The notes beneath the pieces were generated by a model. That model made no database searches, had not been told where the DNA came from, and saw nothing but the letters and a program-made list of their open reading frames with translations. A DNA stretch of 64,000 nucleotides, taken from the IMG/VR virus record IMGVR_UViG_3300021400_002728, positions 229,154 to 293,153 of that record. The stretch is one strand, 5' to 3'. The translations under genes and the position numbers were made by a program. Positions within the stretch are counted from its first letter, which is position 1, and the number at the start of each line of letters is the position of its first letter. This DNA comes from a virus (Duplodnaviria > Heunggongvirae > Uroviricota > Caudoviricetes). Positions 1 to 57,212 of this stretch are shown one piece after another.

Positions 1-1223
1 TGATGTGGTAACTTATCTAAATACTTGTATCTGTTTATGAATAGCTCACCTAATACCAATGGATTATCAAGCATTTCAATTTCTCTTTTAAAATACTCAT
101 TCCAGTTAGCAAGTTTAGCTATTTGAGTCACATTCTTAATTTTGTCTGGAAGTGTGTCATGTTCAGAAAAGTCTCTGTTAAATATAAACATAAACTCTTC
201 TTCTGACCAACATACTAGATAATTAAGATTGTTTTGCTGAGCAGTCTCTAACTTCTTTAAGTCTGATTCAGTCCATACATGAATAGCTATGTCAAAAAAT
301 TTAGTATGCTTTGCTTTCCATTCTTCTAAAACTTTAATATCTTCTGAATTATTAGAATCAAAGAAATGACCACCATGTGTCCAAAAGAAATTACATTCTA
401 CATATAAATCTAACTCAGGCACATACATATCACATTCAAATGGATAAACATCTGAAGTATAATGATGTACAGCATTAGGAAATATAGACTGTAATAAATC
501 ATAACATTTATCTTCTGACTGAGATTTTCCATAGGTTCCATGCTCATGTAGAGTTCTTCTACGTTTAACCTTAAATTCTTCAGAACCTAAATATTGTCTA
601 CTTTTGTTAGACTTCCCATAATTATCATAGCCATATCTGGACAGCATTGTAGATTTACCTTTTTCTCTAACTTCCTTAGATTTCATAGGGTTATCTACAC
701 CATAATGCTCCATATATGATTGTTTCTTCTTTTCAAGAACTTCTGAGGAAGCATAAACATTATCTACTCCATAACGTTCTTGAACTGTTTGCTTACACTT
801 TTCTCTATTAGTAAAAGTAGAGTTGCCATATCGCTTTTCTTTAGTAGCAGCAATTTTCTTAGCTGTTTCTGAACTAGCCATTCCAACTCCACCATGATTT
901 TCAATAATAGTTTGTTTAATTTTCTGTTTTACTTCATCTGCTTGAAATGGATTTTCTACTCCATACTTTTCTAAATTAGTCTGTCTAGCTTTCTTTAGTC
1001 TAGACTTAGCATTTGCAGAATTTTTTTCTGACATTATTTTAGCTCTACATTTTTTACAACGTCCTCTTTGTTGATAAAGTTTACTTGGTAATATTTCAAA
1101 ATCACCATGTTCTTTACAAGTAACAATAATAGGAGTTGTATAAGATTTCCAATCTATATTAGAAAAATCATACTCTGGAAATAACTTTTCACATTTTTCT
1201 AAAAATTGTTCCTTTGTAATCAT
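1..1223 (-). CDS. Homing-endonuclease-like protein, partial (runs off window start)
   Basis: Absent from the ORF track. Manual translation from ATG 1223 (SD GAAGGAG) gives MITKEQFLEKCEKLFPEYDFS...CKEHGDF...RCKKC, KYGVEN-type repeats and the nuclease-like motif YPFECDMYVPELDLYVECNFFWTHGG, which is shared with 36975..38009. Confidence 0.8.
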   Translation of the reverse strand, partial: MITKEQFLEKCEKLFPEYDFSNIDWKSYTTPIIVTCKEHGDFEILPSKLYQQRGRCKKCRAKIMSEKNSANAKSRLKKARQTNLEKYGVENPFQADEVKQKIKQTIIENHGGVGMASSETAKKIAATKEKRYGNSTFTNREKCKQTVQERYGVDNVYASSEVLEKKKQSYMEHYGVDNPMKSKEVREKGKSTMLSRYGYDNYGKSNKSRQYLGSEEFKVKRRRTLHEHGTYGKSQSEDKCYDLLQSIFPNAVHHYTSDVYPFECDMYVPELDLYVECNFFWTHGGHFFDSNNSEDIKVLEEWKAKHTKFFDIAIHVWTESDLKKLETAQQNNLNYLVCWSEEEFMFIFNRDFSEHDTLPDKIKNVTQIAKLANWNEYFKREIEMLDNPLVLGELFINRYKYLDKLPH

Positions 1224-1312
1224 TTTTATTTCTCCTTCATAGAAATATAATAAGCAGCTTAGTGATGAAGGCACTATTACTCAAAGGCTCATGACTTCCT
1301 TTGCTCCCTGCA
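1224..1312 (-). promoter_or_regulatory. Structured leader RNA, copy A (three-way junction plus kissing loop on SD hairpin)
   Basis: Stems AAAGG/CCUUU, UAGUG/CACUA and UAUUUCU/AGAAAUA. Loop CCUUCAU is complementary to SD loop AUGAAGG. Covaries with copy B. Confidence 0.75.
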
Positions 1313-1320
1313 TTATTAAC

Positions 1321-2164
1321 TTAATTGTAGAGATACTCGTATATCTCCAATGCAGTCATTTCTTTTTCTTCGCCGGCTACACGAACTTTAATTTTTTCGT
1401 CTTTATCAAACTCACGACCGGTAATCCAAATTTTACCAGTCCAGTCTGTGGGCTTATAGTCTGCGACGTCATTCAAACCAATTTTCTGCATCTTCTTATT
1501 ACGAGAATACATAACTGAACGTCCAATTCTTAAAATCTCTGCAGCCTCTTGAACAGAGTTAGCAACGGCAACTACACCATTCATTCCCTTAAAAGGATAA
1601 ACATTATTAGACTATATCATATTCTCTAATTAGAGAACCCTACCACTTCGATTTAATAGACTGATATTAGACTAATCTCATCTAAATGCTAACCATATTG
1701 GCTCTACTCTACTTACTTCGTGCAAATGCCTTATTTTCATACCGTATTTCAGGTCCTATAGCTTTCGATAGTCGTTGAACCCGTCTCTGTTACCAAGACT
1801 TGGCTGCTGATTTTCCATTCTTATAACCCTTAGGATTTAACCATAGGTCATCCAAATTATTTTTTCTGCTTTCGCTGCATATCACGTTTAGTATTTCTCT
1901 TACGTTGTAGCTAATTTGGCATTAGGTTCGTATTCATTATAAGAATACTGTTCCAGCAATTCAATAGGGAATTTTTCACGCATGTCACCATACGCGGGAG
2001 CTTCATCCTTTAAAAACGCACTCCGTTTGCTTTATGTCTACAAGCGCAACCGATATTTTATTATTATGTTCGATTCTTTAGGCTTTCGCCTAAATACAAT
2101 GGAATATGACATTCCTCAAAGTGACACTATTGTGCGAAATGAGTCCTCGTTTAGCTGTCTCCAT
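1321..2164 (-). CDS. Fragment of FtsK/HerA-like ATPase paralog A: mini IntC + bypass element + group I intron; coding segments 2164-2093, 2071-2020, 1601-1321 (~134 aa)
   Basis: SD AAGGAGGTG precedes METAKRGLISHN|SVTLRNVIFHCI[gap]EHNNKISVALVDIKQTEF/YPFKGMNGVVAVANSV. This aligns without gaps to SVCEQSIVGHVSRYSDRFQLVGVDCKRVEFNLLRGVKGVKGVALDV of gene B. Confidence 0.8.
1602..2019 (-). ncRNA. Group I intron in ATPase gene A (418 nt, no ORF)
   Basis: Core motifs GAAUUGCUGGAA, AAUCAGCAGCC, GUUCAACGACUA and UGAUAUAGUCU. P1 is GGAGU|...GCUCC with a U-G pair, P10 is AAAGGAU/AUCCUUU, and the intron ends in G. Removal restores ...QTEFYPFKG. Confidence 0.9.
2072..2095 (-). other. Putative programmed translational bypass element (take-off AUU, UAG, hairpin, landing AUC)
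   Basis: ATT TAG GCG AAA GCC TAA AGA ATC, with hairpin UUUAGGC-GAAA-GCCUAAA. Removing 21 nt restores collinearity with the paralog. Confidence 0.7.
2129..2164 (-). other. Mini split-intein C fragment (12 aa, METAKRGLISHN, +1 Ser)
   Basis: Has its own SD and ATG inside the 3' end of the upstream endonuclease gene. Ends His-Asn followed by the Ser equivalent to the Walker A GK-S serine. Confidence 0.8.
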
Positions 2165-3257
2165 TGTAATCATCACCTCCTTTTATAAACTGTTTAGTTT
2201 GAGCTATATTTTTACATTTTCTACAACAGTACATTTGATAACCTCTAGTGAAGTTAATATACTTAGTAGGTTTATTACAAACTAAACATTTCCCTTCATT
2301 ATTAGATTTTATATATGTATCATAATATTCTTTGCAAGTAATCTGTTCATTAAATCTAATATGTGCAGACAGATAATTACCATTTTGAAAAGTCTGATTA
2401 CATATTAGACATGTCATTGGATTATTTTTTATTTTAGGTACATATACAATAGTTCTTGGTTTATCATACTTAAATTTTTTATACCAATATTTATCTTTAT
2501 ACTTCTCTTCACAATACTCTAAATATTGCTTAATATCACTATATGACCATACTATAATGTTGTTTGTATCAATGCATTTTTGTTTATCAGAGTCTTTTAA
2601 TGTGCCATCTGAATTTAGATATTGATTACCTTTAACTTCTATAATATCAGCATTTATTTTAAAGTCAGGAAAATATTTATGTGTAATATTATTTGAGTCA
2701 GTATAAGTCAATATGATAGGTAAACGTTCTATAGGTATATTATGATCTTTATGCCAAATATATACGGCAACTTCCCAAGATGAATCAAATAATTGATTAT
2801 CATAACTATAATATTTTCTAGACTGTTGGATATTTTTGTCTTGCATTGGATGTTCAACACCATATTTAGCTAAACTGTTCTTCTTATGTTCAACCTTAAA
2901 ATAATCAGTTTTGAATATTTCATCTTGTCCATATTTAGCTTTTATAGTTTTCCTAATCTTAGATCTAACTTCTTTAGAACTTAATACACTTTCTACACCA
3001 TATCTTTCTAGATTAGTGTCTTTATGTTTCTGTTTACATTGTTCTGTATTATGAGAACATCGTAAGCAATATTCAAAATATCCATATATAACATTTTTGA
3101 ACTTAGTAGGTTTTCCGCAGGTTTTACAAAATCCATCATTGGTTTTATGTAAATAAGTATCATAGTATTGTTTAGTTTCTATTTTATGTGCTTGCTTAAT
3201 ATGTCCTCCAAATCCAATATTAGATTCAAATTCTTTTCCACAAATAAGACATTTCAT
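2151..3257 (-). CDS. Free-standing homing-endonuclease-like protein (Zn-finger modules, YGVE repeats, PD-(D/E)XK domain)
   Basis: CLICG...H...H and CxxCGKPT modules at both ends; nuclease motif DSSWE...YFPDFKI...IIEVKG. Confidence 0.8.
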   Translation of the reverse strand: MKCLICGKEFESNIGFGGHIKQAHKIETKQYYDTYLHKTNDGFCKTCGKPTKFKNVIYGYFEYCLRCSHNTEQCKQKHKDTNLERYGVESVLSSKEVRSKIRKTIKAKYGQDEIFKTDYFKVEHKKNSLAKYGVEHPMQDKNIQQSRKYYSYDNQLFDSSWEVAVYIWHKDHNIPIERLPIILTYTDSNNITHKYFPDFKINADIIEVKGNQYLNSDGTLKDSDKQKCIDTNNIIVWSYSDIKQYLEYCEEKYKDKYWYKKFKYDKPRTIVYVPKIKNNPMTCLICNQTFQNGNYLSAHIRFNEQITCKEYYDTYIKSNNEGKCLVCNKPTKYINFTRGYQMYCCRKCKNIAQTKQFIKGGDDYNGDS

Positions 3258-3344
3258 GCTATTTCTCCTTAATAGAAATATAATAAAGCAGCTTGATGAT
3301 TAAGGCATCATTATCTCTTTGGTTAGCTAGACCAAAGCTACCTG
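3258..3344 (-). promoter_or_regulatory. Structured leader RNA, copy B
   Basis: Stems AGGUAGC/GCUGCUU, UUUGGU/ACCAAA, UGAUG/CAUCA and UAUUUCU/AGAAAUA. Loop CCUUAAU is complementary to SD loop AUUAAGG. Confidence 0.75.
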
Positions 3345-9379: not shown

Positions 9380-9736
9380 TTATTGCGTATATATAGCAAA
9401 TTGATGATCTGGTGCATCAGTGGTTATACACATTACAACTTCAGGATCTATCTTCTTAATAGATTTGATGATAGGTCCATCTTTAGTTCCAACGGGTCGT
9501 CCTTTATACCAGTCAAACTCTTGGTAAATGCCTTCAGCATCTATCGTATACATTTTATCATTTATGTATACGTTCCATTGATGTACATTAGAACATTTAA
9601 CTTTTCCATTGCTAAAAGTTATTTCATACATATTGTAGGATAACTTAGCTTTAGTCTTTTCAATGACTTTGTGAAATTCGCCATCAGTTCCTAAGACTAA
9701 ATCACCTACTTGAACATCTGCGATAGTCTTCTTCAT
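9380..9736 (-). CDS. Free-standing Hint (intein) core lacking both termini; class-3-like
   Basis: KTIADVQVGDLVLGTDG (post-block A), YEITFSNG..KCSNVHQW (block B with HxW) and VVMCITTDAPDHQF (block F with Cys). No block A strand and no terminal HN. Has its own SD and terminator. Confidence 0.85.
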   Translation of the reverse strand: MKKTIADVQVGDLVLGTDGEFHKVIEKTKAKLSYNMYEITFSNGKVKCSNVHQWNVYINDKMYTIDAEGIYQEFDWYKGRPVGTKDGPIIKSIKKIDPEVVMCITTDAPDHQFAIYTQ

Positions 9737-35230: not shown

Positions 35231-38200
35231 TTACTGTGGATTCTTAGGTTTTAACTTAATAGTTGTCTTAGGCGCAGGTGCCATAGGCTGATCTGCAGTC
35301 GTTTTATCAATATTAAGCTTAATAACCGGTTTCTGACCTGGAATCTGATTTAATGCTGCTCCAATTCTCTCTCTATTTGAAGGTTGACCAAAATTAGGTT
35401 GAGTAGGTCCAGTAGGAGCACCAAAATTAGGTTGAGCTGGTACAGTAGGTGGTGCAGGTGGAGTTTCAGTCTTAGGTGCAGATCCTCCAAATAAACTAGT
35501 TAAATCATCCATTGATACCGCAGGTGAATCTGCTTCAACCTTAGGTTTATCGTCTTTAGGCTCATCTTTAGACTTCTTACCACCAAACTTAAATGTTACT
35601 GGTTCTTCATCTTCGTCTTCATCATCTTCAAACGTATCTTCTTTCTTAGGCGGAGCTTCTTTCTTAGGTGCGTCATCTTTAAAGAGTTCATCTTCATCAA
35701 GATCTTCATCCTCTTCAAACTCATCCTCTTCTTCTTCGATTTCATCCTCTTCCTCTTCAGGTTCCTCACCAATCTTATGCTGAGGTACCCAACCAGTATT
35801 TAACTCGTCGAAGTTTTTACCACGTCTCTTACATAACTCTACAAACACAGGATTATTGTAAGAAAGCTTCTGATCTTCATCAAACTCCCAGTCCGTTATA
35901 TTGGACATTCTTTTACTTTCATAAAAGTCTAGACTATATCATCATTATATATACTATTACCATATATATAACACCTACCACTTCAATTTAATAGACTTAC
36001 TTTAGACTAATCTCATCTAAATGCTAACCATGTTGGCTTTACTCTACTCATTTACTCTTTATAGTATTTAACTATAAATACACTTTCGATAGTCGTTGAA
36101 CCCACCTCTATTCGAGGCTTGGATGCTGATTTCCCATTCTTATTACCCTTAGGTCTCGCCATTAACGACCTTAGGTCATCTCTTCAATTTTTTCTACTTT
36201 CGTCGCGTTCGCACTTAGTCGTATTTCATACTTATGCTGTAGCTTGAAGAGCTCTTAGGTACGTATCGTTATTTGATACTGTTCCAGCAATTCGATAGGT
36301 TTAAGGAGAACCACTGGGATATTTAATTCTCCGGCTGTGTATAATAGGTCTGAGTTTCAATAATCTCATTACCAGATCCAATGAAACCACGACCTTTAAT
36401 CTGAGGTTTAGCTAACTGAGAAATATCCTTCTCAAACATAAGCTGAGAAGCACCATCATCAAATCCACCAAGAAGAACTGACATCTGAATATTGTTCTTC
36501 AAGTCAGTAGAAATAGTAGAACCTGAAGCTCTCTGACATGCAAGTGCTAAGTGTACTGCAGCAGCACGACCAAGACGGGCAATAGATCCAAGAGCCTGTT
36601 TAACAATATCAACTGACTTATAATCATCAGAGGTCATCAACTCATTCAACTCGTCCGCAAGGAATAAAAGTACCTTAGGCACATAAATACCTTTCGACAT
36701 TCTTATTGAATTCTTATCAATATATGAGTTGTAACCTTTTACTTCAGGTAACTGAGGATTTCTTCCTTCCCATTTACCTTCCATCATGCCATCGTAAATT
36801 TTTTGAATAGTAGTAATAATAGGCTGACGTCCATCAGGATAAATAGCCTTCATTTTACTATAGTTTCTATCAGATTCATCAAGGTCTACCATAAGCTCGA
36901 AGATTTCATCAAACTGAACCTTCTTACCAAATACTTCAAAGTAGTTAACTTCTTTGTCTTTGATTTTATAAACATTATTGCATAGATAACCAAGTATCAA
37001 ACTCAGATTTAGTATAAAATACAAATAATTGTACTTTATTACGTTTAGCTACTTTTAACTTGTGTGTATCTCTAACTGTCCAAGTATGAATAGCATTTTC
37101 AAAATACTTAGATGTTTTAGATTTTTCTATCCACTCTGTTAACTTTTTACTATCATTTTTCTTATTGTATGGATGTAATCCATGTGTCCAATGAAAGTTA
37201 AGTTCAATATAAATATCTTTAGATGGAATGTATAAATCACATACAAAAGGATATTTAGTTGACTTATATCCGTGTTTAGCATCTGGATAAATACTTAAAA
37301 GTTGTTCATAACATAAATCTTCTGTCTTTGATACCTTAAATGAATGATTCTTCTTTTTAGTCAGATAACTTTTATGTTTAATCTCAGCTTTTTCTTTATC
37401 TGACTTCAACATATATGCATCTCTATGTTTCTGACCAATAATCTTCATTTCTTCTTCAGTTTTACTATCAAATGTAGCTTGTCTCTTTGCATAAATTGCT
37501 TTCTTTTCTTCATCAGATTTAGCATAGTATTTGTCTGAAATTTTTTGCTTTACTGATTCTACCGCAAATGGACTAGTTGTTCCATATACCTTAAGACAAG
37601 TTTCTTTATACTTTTTACTATTATTGTATGTTTCATCTCCATACTTTGCTTGGCAAGTAGATTTTCTTTTAAGAATAGATTTCTGTTTTTCATCATCTGT
37701 TCTATTTAATAAAGACTCACTCGTCTTATTTGGATTATTGTATGTAGGAGTTCCATACCTAATAATTTTAGTAGTTTTAACTGAATTAGAATGTATAGTA
37801 GATTTATTTAAGCATGATCTAGAACAATACTTATTATAACCTTTGAAAATATCCTTAAAGTTTGTAGGTTTACCGCATACTTCACATACACCTTTTCCAA
37901 AGTACATATCATAATATGTTTGTTGACTAATGTTATGCTGTTCTAAATGTTTCTTAAACAACCTATTTGAAATTGGTTGATTACATATTCTGCATATTGT
38001 TTCATTCATTCTAATTTCTCCTTAGACTATATCTTCACCCTATTACTAGGGGACTACCTTTTCGATTTAAGGGAATCTCACCCACCATATAGGCCCTACG
38101 AGTATTGCTACAAATATTCGAGATTTCCACTCTTATTTTACGATGTAGCCTCTGTAAGCTCTAGTCGTTGAACTTTTACCCTCGACTTAACTAACTTATG

Positions 38201-39448
38201 GTCTAAGTATAACGTTAGGGTACTTAGCTGCTAAGGTTCCTCATTCTACTAGCCCTTAGGATTTAACCATAGGCCAAACAATCAATTTTTTCTACTTTCG
38301 TTGCATTCACATCTATTCTTTCGAATTATGTTGTAGCTTGATTGTTGTTAGAGTCGTATTCATTATAAGAATACTGTTCCAGCAATTAAATAGTTTATTT
38401 CTCACGCAGATTACTCTACGCGCAGGCCATACATGTTTATAAAACCTGCATCTGTTCCATGAACTTAAATCTGTCCATCATAATCTGTTGGAAGTTGGCC
38501 ACTGCATCTGCTGCTGTAGGTACATCCAACGCGACACCTTTCACGCCTTTTCGGTTAACTCTATAATTTTCATTATAAACCTGACTATATCTCGTATATA
38601 AATTTATATACTCCTATCACTTTCAACTGTAACTCATCTTCAGTCGTACTCTCCTTATGGAGATAGTCGATACACCTTCAATTAAGCTTGGCACGGTATT
38701 ACCTGCTATCTTACGAAAGACCGTAGGATCTCTTAGTCAGCTGCTTCGTCTATGGTCTAAGGCTATATATCTTGTTGTAACACTTCATATAGCAGTCTTA
38801 TTCAACTGATACCGTTAGCAATATAGAATAAGATCTATATCACACCCTTGAGTAATGAGGTTCAATAGGAATGCGCAAAGTTACTTACGCCGCGTAAAAG
38901 GTTAAATTCTACTCTTTTACAGTCAACACCTACTAATTGGAATCGATCTGAGTAACGCGATACGTGACCCACTATGCTTTGTTCACACCGAATTGTTATC
39001 AATAAGCTTTTTATCTTATTTTCTATGTCATTACAACATAAGTCCAGCGTACCTTTTCATTACAGATTCTGCATCTGTGTCATCCAATGGTGAGGCCTCT
39101 TGGAAGTATTATATTCTCTAATATCTCAATTAAAGGTTCAACTTCTACGCGTTGCCGTTGACTATACTTTTACATATAGCCTTAACATTCTGATTATGGT
39201 TGCAAACCATTTTCCAGCTTAATTCCTCACTAATAATCCATAATTTACTTGATGACTTCATTATGGACGGCGAACTAATAGCTATGCATTTATTGCACTA
39301 TTAGTCAGTTTACCGATTTACCTGAGTTGTGAAATACAGATCCATCAGGCATTAGATACATAGGGTCATCTTCAAGCGAAAAACCAAAATATTGGTCGGT
39401 TTTGTTCAATGGTTTAACACTGAACTCAACCTGTTTCACTACACTCAT
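35231..39448 (-). CDS. FtsK/HerA-like ATPase B, C-terminal precursor: IntC + 5 exons (39448-39312, 38988-38887, 38551-38444, 36980-36326, 35893-35231; 554 aa)
   Basis: The spliced frame is open end to end (1665 nt): ...HN|SGKSV (3' half of Walker A), LLFLADE (Walker B), ARLGRAAAVHLALACQR (FtsK/HerA Arg-finger/Gln motif), KGRG, then an acidic and Pro-rich tail. Confidence 0.88.
35894..36325 (-). ncRNA. Group I intron D (432 nt)
   Basis: P1 GGAGAAU|...GUUCUCC; P10 UCCCAGU/ACUGGGA; motifs GAAUUGCUGGAA, AAUCAGCAUCC, GUUCAACGACUA and GAUAUAGUCU. Joins PEN/DWEF. Confidence 0.92.
36975..38009 (-). CDS. Intron-encoded homing endonuclease-like protein
   Basis: Zn-finger CRIC..H..H and CEVCGKPT; nuclease-like YPFVCDLYIP..IELNFHWTHG. 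Starts right after the intron S motif. Confidence 0.85.
   Translation of the reverse strand: MNETICRICNQPISNRLFKKHLEQHNISQQTYYDMYFGKGVCEVCGKPTNFKDIFKGYNKYCSRSCLNKSTIHSNSVKTTKIIRYGTPTYNNPNKTSESLLNRTDDEKQKSILKRKSTCQAKYGDETYNNSKKYKETCLKVYGTTSPFAVESVKQKISDKYYAKSDEEKKAIYAKRQATFDSKTEEEMKIIGQKHRDAYMLKSDKEKAEIKHKSYLTKKKNHSFKVSKTEDLCYEQLLSIYPDAKHGYKSTKYPFVCDLYIPSKDIYIELNFHWTHGLHPYNKKNDSKKLTEWIEKSKTSKYFENAIHTWTVRDTHKLKVAKRNKVQLFVFYTKSEFDTWLSMQ
36981..38443 (-). mobile_element. Group I intron C (1463 nt) carrying a homing endonuclease gene
   Basis: P1 GCAGGU|...GCCUGC; P10 UUAUAAACAU/AUGUUUAUAA; motifs AAUUGCUGGAA, GUUCAACGACUA and AAGAUAUAGUCU. Joins MQV/NNVY. Confidence 0.9.
38552..38886 (-). ncRNA. 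Group I intron B (335 nt)
   Basis: P1 GCGU|AAG..UUUGCGC; motifs GCUAACGG, GUAAUACCGUGCCAAG, GUAUCGACUA and AGAUAUAGUCAG. Joins LLRGV/KGVKGV, collinear with gene A. Confidence 0.85.
38989..39311 (-). ncRNA. Group I intron A (323 nt), immediately after Walker A
   Basis: P1 CGGU|...GCCG; motifs AAUUAAGCUGGAA, AAUCAGAA, CAACGCGUAG and AAGGUACGCUG. Joins SGKSV/CEQ. Confidence 0.85.
39326..39448 (-). other. Split-intein C fragment (41 aa)
   Basis: MSVVKQVEFSVKPLNKTDQYFGFSLEDDPMYLMPDGSVFHN followed by Ser. Block F (YFGFSL) and block G (VFHN). SD GGAGG and ATGA overlap with the upstream gene. Confidence 0.92.
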
Positions 39449-56717: not shown

Positions 56718-57212
56718 TTATTCCTCCATAATTTTTTCCATTACATAATGAGATCTAAACTCATCATTCATGTGCATGTATATATTTACAGGAATTTCAA
56801 GATGTTCACCAGTATCTCGGTCAACTAATGCAAGAATATGTCCACCATTTACAGTGTACGAAGTTCCATCAATAGAAATTTCAAACATTTCATCTTCACC
56901 AGTATGTAGTTCTTTTACCTTACGTGGTTGTCCATCCTTACCCATAACTACGTCACCTAATTTAACGTCTTTTGCAAGTTTAATTCGTGAACCGACTGGA
57001 TAATTATCGTCATTTGAAAATTCTTCAATAGTAAAACTTCTCTTTATTCGTTTTCCGTCAACAAGGTCAACAAGATGATGTTTCCTGTACATATTTTTAA
57101 TTAAATAGTCTTTTACTGACACAACTTTTTTACAACCAAATCTAAAAAGAGTTAGTTTGTAGTTTTCGTCAGCTATAATAAAACTACCATCATCTAAAGT
57201 GATTTTATACAT
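56718..57212 (-). CDS. Free-standing Hint/intein-derived protein (IntN-like, no N-terminal nucleophile, no HN)
   Basis: KDVKLGDVVMGKDGQPRKVKELHTGEDEMFEI..SYTVNGGHIL, preceded by a second degenerate block-B copy MYKITLDDGSFIIADENYKL..SVKDYL. Confidence 0.8.
   Translation of the reverse strand: MYKITLDDGSFIIADENYKLTLFRFGCKKVVSVKDYLIKNMYRKHHLVDLVDGKRIKRSFTIEEFSNDDNYPVGSRIKLAKDVKLGDVVMGKDGQPRKVKELHTGEDEMFEISIDGTSYTVNGGHILALVDRDTGEHLEIPVNIYMHMNDEFRSHYVMEKIMEE

Follow-up and report, generated by a model that had tools for sequence, protein, structure and literature searches.

The locus and its uninterrupted homologues

The window analyzed here is a stretch of 64,000 nucleotides (nt), and it spans positions 229154-293153 of one virus contig, which is 394,266 bp long and carries direct terminal repeats (IMG/VR record IMGVR_UViG_3300021400_002728, hereafter G000). 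The analysis centers on the 844 bases at window positions 1321-2164, which genuinely encode the middle part of an FtsK-like ATPase, referred to as paralogue A, and are conserved. The genome has a G+C content of approximately 30%, and nearly all of its genes are on the minus strand. Three related huge phage contigs from IMG/VR, namely G001 (332 kb), G002 (290 kb), and G003 (467 kb), were taken whole, and no close relative was found among GenBank phages.

Read on the minus strand, the stretch begins with a start codon and a 12-residue intein C-terminal tag, followed by exon 1a, a 21-nt gap, exon 1b, a group I intron, and exon 2 (Table 1). The original prediction, made from the sequence of the window, had described a mini C-terminal intein fragment (IntC), a stop-containing gap of 21 nt, and a 418-nt group I intron at this site, and all three were present on the minus strand where it had placed them. 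It had also aligned the product with ATPase paralogue B from the Walker A Ser to a point before Walker B, and the profile comparison agrees with this extent. The product is alignable with the paralogue B of the window, and a contiguous copy in the relative L001 matched positions 70-135 of the 221 positions of FtsK_SpoIIIE (Pfam accession PF01580), the interval between Walker A and Walker B, at 18.7 bits, which is under the cut-off of 24. The paralogue B of G002 matched the same family at 56.3 bits. Weak matches of exon 2 to HTH_17 and HTH_8 were considered as a sign of a helix-turn-helix, and the FtsK register together with the unsplit homologues explained this segment better.

The unsplit homologues P0001-P0006 (383-385 amino acids (aa), 83-86% identical), which carry PF01580 in their precomputed annotation, include a membrane N-domain followed by …CVGSTGGGKSVTLRNVIFHCIEHNNKISVGLIDIKQTEFYPFKG…YEYLYE*. 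Across the sites of interest they read …GSTGGGK-SVTLRNVIFHCI-EHNNK…KQTEF-YPFKG without interruption, a stretch also given as …GSTGGGKSVTLRNVIFHCIEHNNKISVGLIDIKQTEFYPFKG…. The tag, the gap, and the intron are all insertions, because the unsplit homologues read through without any of them. The Ser that comes directly after the tag corresponds to that of Walker A, since these homologues read GSTGGGK-S. A reading of GLISHNS itself as a degenerate P-loop of the GTGSGKS type was ruled out on the same comparison, as the N piece supplies TGGGK. The protein sequence of exon 1a is identical to that of P0001-P0006, and alleles of 131-138 aa were also found in which the tag was kept while neither gap nor intron was present.

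Selection was measured by Nei-Gojobori counts of the nonsynonymous (pN) and synonymous (pS) proportions against the relatives L001, L002, and L003. These counts bear on whether the stretch is a decaying pseudogene, that is, a degraded partial duplicate of ATPase B left behind by endonuclease activity and unexpressed. It would be consistent with decay that the piece contains stops, has neither Walker A nor Walker B, has an endonuclease gene on either side, and carries no annotation. However, the pN/pS for the tag and exons 1a and 1b, on both sides of the gap, was only 0.03-0.19 (pS 0.46-0.93), and exon 2 resembled the codons flanking the gap with a pN/pS of 0.06-0.26. For example, the window and L002 differ by nine nucleotides within SVTLRNVIFHCI, all nine synonymous, and the differences in GLISHN among the window, L002, and L003 are likewise all synonymous, while exon 1b compared with L001 had a pS of 0.89 and a pN of 0.024. 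The tag is conserved, and each allele has a Shine-Dalgarno (SD) sequence and an ATG of its own. Exon 2 is 82-96% identical in the three related huge phages and had 158 relatives in a database search, and its C-terminus is kept in the unsplit proteins that combine the N and middle segments. The original prediction had accepted decay as the outcome if the genome contained no other pieces of the protein and the gene were not expressed; the other pieces are all present and are conserved in four genomes. A pseudogene is accordingly highly improbable, and the favored reading, with some reserve, is that the stretch is a functional gene encoding the middle segment of an ATPase of the FtsK/SpoIIIE-like kind.

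Table 1. Features of paralogue A and of related loci. Positions are those of the window unless another sequence is named.
Feature	Position	Strand	Remarks
ATG start	2162-2164	-	SD AAGGAGGTGA 7 nt upstream
Start and 12-residue intein C-tag METAKRGLISHN	2129-2164	-	Ends …GLISHN, followed by Ser
Exon 1a, SVTLRNVIFHCI, 12 codons	2093-2128	-	Last codon ATT (2093-2095), putative take-off
21-nt gap, TAG GCG AAA GCC TAA AGA ATC	2072-2092	-	Two in-frame stops
Exon 1b, EHNNKISVALVDIKQTE (17 codons), and first base of a Phe codon	2020-2071	-	U at 2020 is the 5' splice site
Group I intron, 418 nt, without open reading frame (ORF)	1602-2019	-	Rfam RF00028; P1/P10; empty alleles
Exon 2, …YPFKGMNGVV…EIYEYLYN	1321-1601	-	Stop at 1321-1323; FtsK-like, from DxK strand to before Walker B
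A-N piece	G000:C1:318671-319960 (L071:672-1961)	-	About 25 kb past the window end
Free 196-aa intein body	G000 302709-303296		Homologous to the first 179 residues of P0007
Walker B piece	G000:C1:180040-180441		…LLIVVDEIAEL…LGRSAGIH…LPG, intron, IIQNNPLSIDTLVEVKD*
Likely last piece, …NMIFTHN|CAARI…KGAG…	G000:C1 ~195300-195650 (L072)	-	Motif likeness
Free 118-aa intein body without exteins	9380-9736	-	Second split intein; junction …IIQNN|PLSIDTLV… on the Walker B piece
DUF7487 homing-endonuclease-like ORF	2151-3257	-	Directly upstream; 14-nt overlap with the gene start; PF24308, 61.8 bits
Second DUF7487 endonuclease-like ORF	3-1274	-	Directly downstream, runs off the window; PF24308, 77.4 bits
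Leaders (~55 nt) of the two DUF7487 ORFs	1226-1279 and ~3259-3313		
Endonuclease ORF next to the Walker B piece	G000:C1:178325-179392 (L073)		Ends …VQNNPLSADTLVKTKD
tRNA with anticodon UUA	G000:114279-114350		
Paralogue B	35231-39448	-	Starts with the intein C-fragment …VFHN|SGKSV
Intein C-fragment of paralogue B, 41 aa	39326-39448		
Introns of paralogue B homologous to the intron at 1602-2019	~38222-38422 and 35974-36299		
Endonuclease ORF within an intron of paralogue B	36975-38009		
Membrane N piece of paralogue B	G000:C1:296940-297743		3.8 kb past the window end
Free 164-aa Hint-domain ORF without exteins	56718-57212	-	Hom_end_hint, 39.8 bits, over the cut-off

Dispersed pieces and the intein at the Walker A site

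The remaining segments of paralogue A were located outside the window (Table 1). The A-N piece, in order, encodes …ALCVGS, a contiguous intein of ~155 aa, TGGGK, and AIYIDQSVEVQSDEV*, the last of these being a 15-aa intein N-stub. This piece and the Walker B piece are separate genes, and both are conserved in all four genomes. The pieces are tied together by the metagenomic protein P0007 (533 aa, 54% identical), because the middle segment (SVTINN…) and the Walker B segment are fused in this one protein. In P0007 an intein part ends …LTNHN directly before the same Ser, and …IRSNP and the start of a second intein follow later in the sequence. A further piece is likely, from the likeness of its motifs, to be the last extein piece of the same ATPase. 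The original prediction had proposed at least three pieces, with an N piece reaching to the GK of Walker A and a C piece from Walker B onward both lying outside the window. The dispersal was confirmed by both pieces, while the count has to be raised, as paralogue A is encoded in at least four extein pieces.

Scans of the genome with intein families (TIGR01445 and PF14890) gave no match; the pieces were found only through metagenomic homologues. A regular-expression search for an N piece with "GK" followed by Cys did not find it, because the N-tag starts with Ala. The last piece was not recovered by any of three approaches, namely a two-sequence hidden Markov model of B-type tails, a regular expression, and BLASTP against paralogue B. 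Its assignment by motif likeness, with no homology match, is a weak point in the reconstruction.

The break between the middle and Walker B pieces (YEYLYN*/MGW…) is a plain gene fission without an intein; the unsplit relatives likewise end at YEYLYE*, before Walker B. Walker B would be supplied by a separate polypeptide encoded ~50 kb away. A second split intein, with the 118-aa ORF of the window as its body, would in turn join this polypeptide to the last piece. This body is homologous to the C-terminal (second) intein part of P0007, is kept in four genomes, and matched Pfam Hom_end_hint at 21.6 bits (E 2.4e-4); no longer fused forms of it were found in a database search. By this homology it is assigned to the junction of the Walker B and last pieces and is not the partner of the tag at 2129-2164.

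Two further observations were made on these pieces. The contiguous intein between CVGS and TGGGK in the A-N piece starts with Pro (PLGLNTIV…) and has Thr as its +1 residue, and its last residue is Gln (G000 and G001) or Asn (G002 and G003). The Walker B piece lies just upstream of an endonuclease ORF (L073) whose end repeats the final 16 residues of this piece in diverged form, as if an insertion had duplicated the gene end.

The tag that opens the middle piece has the form M(x1-8)GLI[S/N]HN|S in more than 10 diverse relatives. Only G-L-I-S-H-N is conserved, with the His-Asn and the Ser invariant and the rest of the tag variable, and the Ser that follows is both the Walker A Ser and the +1 nucleophile. 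Split inteins characteristically end in His-Asn ahead of a Ser, Thr, or Cys nucleophile, with the junction at a conserved position of the protein that they interrupt, and the tag with its Ser shows this pattern. The partner fragments were recognized through P0007, which carries a 186-aa intein part ending …LTNHN|S at the site of the tag. The free 196-aa body is homologous to this part and stops at …STDTGRYET*, just before the strand with which P0007 continues. From these comparisons, the window tag appears to supply the missing final strand (GLISHN, corresponding to LTNHN of P0007), and the missing first strands of the body appear to be the 11-15-residue stub after TGGGK. The Walker A intein itself is in three genes, encoding the N-tag, the free body, and the C-tag. 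The intein end claimed by the original prediction stood, and the three-gene layout is a correction to it.

The structural models agree with this assignment. An AlphaFold model of the body had a predicted local distance difference test score (pLDDT) of 86.6, and its top 46 structural matches were all inteins or Hint domains, spanning Z scores of 9.5-7 with a root-mean-square deviation (rmsd) of ~2 Å over ~94 residues. The best match was gp41-1 (Z 9.5; 94 residues aligned at an rmsd of 2.1 Å, within residues 15-118 of the 127-residue chain), and a class 3 DnaB intein matched at Z 9.1. In the reference structures the aligned range began near residue 15 and stopped about nine residues short of the end. 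Foldseek alone gave weak E-values on the body. The body is predicted to fold as an intein that lacks its first ~14 and last ~9 residues. A complex of the body, the N-tail, and the tag was modeled on the G002 orthologues (the body, the N-tail, and the tag-bearing start) rather than on the chains of the window. Its scores were 0.85, 0.82, and 0.59 (median 0.82) with a best control of 0.02, and a score at this level was attained by 58 of 80 solved complexes and two of 110 mismatched pairs. The runs agreed, and the pLDDT of the partners was 40-66. In the model, the L-I-S-H of the tag contacts the block B His region, the last strand and end of the body, and the GGK|A junction. The model thereby supports binding of the tag, the body, and the stub to one another.

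In the proposed mechanism, the first 12 residues of the product would form the tag, the last six of which, GLISHN, would make the final intein strand, and the membrane-anchored N piece would close with …TGGGK and the 15-residue N-tag. The N-tag, the 196-residue body, and the C-tag would assemble and splice, which would leave the Walker A loop GSTGGGK-S across the junction. Judged from homology, fold, and the complex model together, three-piece protein trans-splicing of this kind is probable. Several points weigh against it. No Pfam match was found in the 196-aa body. The complex score is a measure of confidence only, obtained with G002 chains, and may reflect a likeness to solved split inteins. 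In addition, residue 1 of the N-tag is Ala in G000, G001, and G002 and Ser in G003, and never Cys, so a non-canonical, class-3-like chemistry would be needed.

The absence of a canonical Cys1 from G000-G002 and the very short fragments would also suit a clamp, in which the tag, the body, and the N-stub hold the pieces together non-covalently and the splicing chemistry has been lost. This alternative is unlikely. The His-Asn and the +1 Ser have remained invariant in more than 10 diverse alleles while the other tag residues vary, and some inteins with Ala as residue 1 (class 2 and 3) are known to splice. Moreover, the junction separates the Lys and the Ser of the P-loop, and nucleotide binding would be hard to square with a loop left unligated there and burdened with three bulky fragments.

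According to a 2023 preprint, natural inteins had been found as one or two genes only, and the three-piece forms were synthetic (Weis et al., bioRxiv 10.1101/2023.01.30.526203); the three-gene layout has so far been reported for engineered inteins only. The engineered S1/S11 three-piece inteins (Ssp and Rma DnaB, Npu DnaE, and gp41-1; bioRxiv 10.1101/2023.01.30.526203) have the same layout of N-tag, body, and C-tag, and the split points observed here match S1 (after ~11-15 residues) and S11 (before the last strand). In contrast to those constructs, the parts found here are natural genes up to 88 kb apart, four huge phages and many metagenomic contigs conserve them, the intein begins with Ala or Ser in place of Cys, and splicing is predicted. 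The fractured genes of Dassa et al. (2009; PMC2677866) likewise include free-standing endonuclease genes at intein split points, but their halves are adjacent and their inteins are in two pieces, whereas paralogue A is dispersed over ~140 kb, has an intein in three pieces, and includes stop-containing gaps. In huge gut phages (PMC12880540), essential genes are likewise broken by group I introns, inteins, and endonucleases, and the word "bypass" is absent from the text of that report. A two-piece form of the present intein, with a short N fragment and a long C fragment, is seen in P0007 and resembles the AceL-TerL type. Inteins of the AceL-TerL type are natural inteins with an atypical split that leaves a very short N fragment.

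Stop-containing gaps and the group I intron

In the window, a stop directly follows the putative take-off codon ATT, and the last gap triplet, ATC, matches the take-off in encoding Ile. The gap region forms the hairpin UUUAGGC-GAAA-GCCUAAA (-9.3 kcal/mol, z -3.4), a motif that occurred once in the window against 0.02 occurrences expected by chance. Comparable gaps were identified in related alleles, which gave a set of 13 gaps, 11 of them at three sites in eight alleles of the middle piece and two in alleles of the last piece. At the first site, which reads FHCI-EHNN in ungapped homologues, the gap is 21 nt in the window, 24 nt in L001, 29 nt in L003, and 5 nt (TGACC) in L085, and it is absent from L002, the unsplit homologues, and the uninterrupted alleles. 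At the second site, after SVTL or SVTLR, gaps of 18, 11, 26, and 25 nt were found in L003, L086, L087, and L088, respectively, and at the third site, after VDI, gaps of 6, 10, and 7 nt were found in L002, L003, and L086, respectively. The last piece has a 6-nt gap after ATT, which is TAG GTC in G000 and TAG ATC in G001, and G002 has none. The 13 lengths (5, 6, 6, 6, 7, 10, 11, 18, 21, 24, 25, 26, and 29 nt) include seven that are not multiples of three.

The gaps share a common design. A stop was found right after the last coding codon in every one of the 13 (12 TAG and one TGA). The landing triplet at the end of the gap was fully cognate in six of 13, where a null of random triplets drawn 20,000 times from the G000 genome had a mean of 0.6 and never reached six, and it was compatible at two or more positions in all 13 (null mean 3.8, maximum 10). 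All seven gaps of at least 11 nt form a hairpin whose 5' arm is upstream coding sequence that includes the take-off codon and the stop; these hairpins range from -7.4 to -17.8 kcal/mol (z -2.4 to -8.2) and are built from different sequences across alleles. Where the take-off codon encodes Ile, it is ATT in seven of seven gapped cases, compared with two of nine ungapped alleles at the same sites. In addition, the protein sequence of exon 1b of L003 is conserved in a shifted frame between its 29-nt and 10-nt gaps, including a Ser codon changed from TCG to AGC.

This pattern suggests that the gaps are crossed by translational bypass. A ribosome starting at the ATG at 2164 would reach the Ile codon AUU with UAG in its A site, while the 5' arm of the hairpin would hold the take-off codon and the stop. 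The peptidyl-tRNA-Ile would then let go and re-pair at AUC, 21 nt downstream, and translation would resume at GAA. The bypass product would read …FHCI-EHNN…, which matches the uninterrupted homologues. On the comparison of the 13 gaps, hopping of the ribosome over the gap is the probable explanation. It is weakened by four points: the gaps are not all independent, and shared ancestry reduces the force of the landing-triplet statistic; seven of the 13 landing triplets mismatch at one position; the gap of the window is in frame, in the only one of the four genomes to encode a tRNA with the anticodon UUA; and the gaps of L087 and L088 end in ATG or TTG, so a restart would be possible there.

Such a restart is the basis of an unlikely alternative in which the break is real: translation would stop at TAG and begin again at or after the gap, through termination-reinitiation or a near-cognate start, and the two polypeptides would associate non-covalently. 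Gene callers do start ORFs at the ATG and TTG of L087 and L088, ATC, ATT, and ATA, which occur as landing triplets, can serve weakly as start codons, and this ATPase already tolerates one plain fission at YEYLYN*/MGW…. However, there is no SD sequence before the ATC of the window, and the gaps of 5-7 nt (TGACC, TAGCTC, and TAGGCTC) leave no start codon at all. A true break would also sever the helix that directly follows the P-loop, or the DxK strand, and restart does not account for the tracking of take-off by landing triplets (CTT/CTC, TTG/TTG, and ATT/ATY).

The out-of-frame lengths exclude read-through as a general answer, because gaps of 5, 7, 10, 11, 25, 26, and 29 nt are unreadable. For the window, decoding of the in-frame gap by the phage tRNA with the anticodon UUA would add seven residues in a loop, and both the length, a multiple of three at a helix-to-strand loop, and an open insert at the same site in P0073 would agree with it. 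Nevertheless, G001, G002, and G003 are without this tRNA and yet are gapped, and going from the window to L001 the stem is preserved, the loop and tail differ, and stops become more numerous, a conservation at the level of RNA and not of protein. Read-through is therefore very unlikely. The insert in the metagenomic protein P0073 is in frame, consists of the three residues QTI, and ends in Ile like the first gap site; it is possibly a gap minus its stop. The G000 genome encodes 38 tRNAs and a transfer-messenger RNA (tmRNA), at loci including G000:C1:114279-114350, 110707-111065, and 105702-105775, and one of the tRNAs is an ARAGORN call with a two-base anticodon.

The gap might also be removed from the RNA, as a core-less micro-intron aided by a group I ribozyme or by some other cut-and-join reaction. 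A full group I intron does lie 52 nt downstream, and several homologous introns are found in the genome, but L001, L003, and L085-L088 are gapped and yet have no intron in the gene for the middle piece. Furthermore, a group I reaction needs a U at the end of the 5' exon and a G at the end of the intron, which the gaps of the window, L001, L087, and L088 and those of 5-7 nt fail to provide in any register that the repeated codon permits, and the hairpins pair the gap with upstream coding sequence, so that excision of a hairpin would delete codons. Removal from RNA is quite improbable, and bypass is retained as the preferred reading of the gaps.

Two wider searches for gaps were also made. A pattern scan of viral contigs for more alleles of the first site returned only G001, G003, and eight chance matches in an unrelated element, and a noisy genome-wide scan of the four genomes for further stop-containing inserts left, after filtering, only the gaps of this ATPase.

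Three features are described as key to bypassing in T4 gene 60: the take-off codon is followed by a stop, it lies within the 5' arm of a stem, and the landing site matches it (Manning & Atkins, bioRxiv 10.1101/2022.08.31.505936). The gaps described here share with gene 60, which has a 50-nt gap in the MobA cassette, the stop, the take-off in the 5' arm, the landing match, an adjacent free-standing homing endonuclease, and a split gene. They differ in that no sequence likeness to gene 60 or the MobA cassette was seen, the host gene is an FtsK-like ATPase whereas gene 60 and its homologues belong to topoisomerase genes, the gaps are much shorter (5-29 nt), fall at three sites in a span of 35 codons, and differ in length from allele to allele, and the take-off codons are Ile, Leu, or Arg and not Gly. 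No SD sequence was identified within the gaps; no nascent-peptide signal was identified, and this signal was not assessed. Bypass is here predicted from sequence, and by this comparison the gaps appear to work like gene 60 without being members of the gene 60/MobA cassette family. The byp elements of Magnusiomyces capitatus mitochondria (bioRxiv 10.1101/2022.08.31.505936) likewise occur as several short untranslatable inserts per gene with pairing of take-off and landing, but they are 27-55 nt long, GC-cluster-like, and mitochondrial, unlike the gaps here. The gaps of 5-7 nt look like the hops of E. coli over stop codons, which are low-efficiency and occur in synthetic or incidental contexts, whereas the present gaps are conserved in a selected gene. 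Such short +5/+6 tRNA hops over stop codons were reportedly described in E. coli by Weiss and colleagues in 1987.

The intron between exons 1b and 2 gave a full-length match to Rfam RF00028 (model positions 1-253) at 25.3 bits (E 4.8e-4), and a point against the assignment is that this score is under the gathering score of 50. The expected pairings were found. In P1, the exon end GGAGU pairs with GCUCC 18 nt into the intron, with a U-G pair included, and in P10 the intron sequence GGAUGAA, directly 5' of the guide, pairs with the first seven bases of exon 2 (UUUAUCC) with one G-U. The last intron base, at 1602, is G. In L001, the positions corresponding to 2022 and 1601 of the window are 3 nt apart and the frame reads …KQTEFYPFKG…, and the intron is precisely absent, with the frame open across the junction, from L001-L003, L085-L088, P0001-P0006, and P0011. 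Homologous introns are found in paralogue B. Judged by these structures and empty alleles, the 418-nt intron is very likely spliced out of the RNA, and its removal would join …KQTE-F-YPFKG….

Endonucleases, paralogue B, and implications

The gene for the middle piece is flanked on both sides by DUF7487 endonuclease-like ORFs. In L001, the upstream ORF is internally deleted, and the downstream ORF is absent with just its ~90-nt leader retained. Both ORFs of the window are preceded by the same ~55-nt leader, and L001 and L003 retain the leader where an endonuclease gene is gone. An endonuclease-like ORF, or in L003 a leader remnant, lies directly upstream of the ATG in all eight gap-bearing alleles and in none of three uninterrupted alleles. 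The window and L001 are near-identical through the endonuclease, the tag, and exon 1a and diverge from the gap on (pS 0-0.14 against 0.89). In the MobA/gene 60 system, the gap protects the target site (bioRxiv 10.1101/2022.08.31.505936), and the pairing of endonuclease and gap observed here resembles that arrangement, with target protection presumed. The gaps probably originated together with the homing-endonuclease genes that are inserted immediately upstream, or else as a defense against them.

Paralogue B is itself interrupted. Several group I introns divide it, with an endonuclease ORF inside one of them, and the paralogue B of G002 is without the first three introns. Its N piece ends …GGTG|CMEENTPVMMYDTLVH* in four genomes, and its C-fragment is just 41 aa. 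The free 164-aa Hint-domain ORF, which is found in four genomes, is a candidate body for the intein of paralogue B. G003 also encodes an extra, uninterrupted B-like paralogue of 369 aa (L008:3620-4726) with degenerate Walker A (GGKGSGKN) and Walker B (…MINDIN) motifs.

Taken together, expression of the middle piece as part of a complete ATPase probably needs RNA splicing, a hop over a 21-base hairpin gap, and the splicing of an intein encoded in three genes. The same three processes had been named in the original prediction, and each gained support: RNA splicing from the P1/P10 structure and the empty alleles, bypassing from the stop, landing match, and hairpin of the 13 gaps, and protein trans-splicing from the partner fragments, the Hint fold, and the complex model. 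It counts against the whole that all three steps are inferred from sequence, structure, and models. The broader proposal, that this phage lineage builds one ATPase from at least four extein genes by means of natural three-piece split inteins and also tolerates hopped, endonuclease-linked micro-gaps of 5-29 nt, is a possibility placed slightly short of an even chance.

Genes of this kind are missed or truncated by gene callers, and databases hold fragments of 87 aa. The series of gaps amounts to a natural mutational scan of bypassing, with many lengths at one site, take-off and landing codons that change together, and hairpins that are rebuilt, and it could allow the rules that govern take-off and landing to be tested directly in a system other than T4 gene 60. 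If the reading is true, the gaps would represent a second, mechanistically informative class of programmed bypass in phages, and the Walker A intein would be the first natural three-fragment intein. If this intein splices, it would offer ready-made, very short tags (~6-15 residues) that could serve in traceless ligation and in controlling protein assembly by three inputs, and the S1/S11 design that engineers built by hand would already be used in nature.

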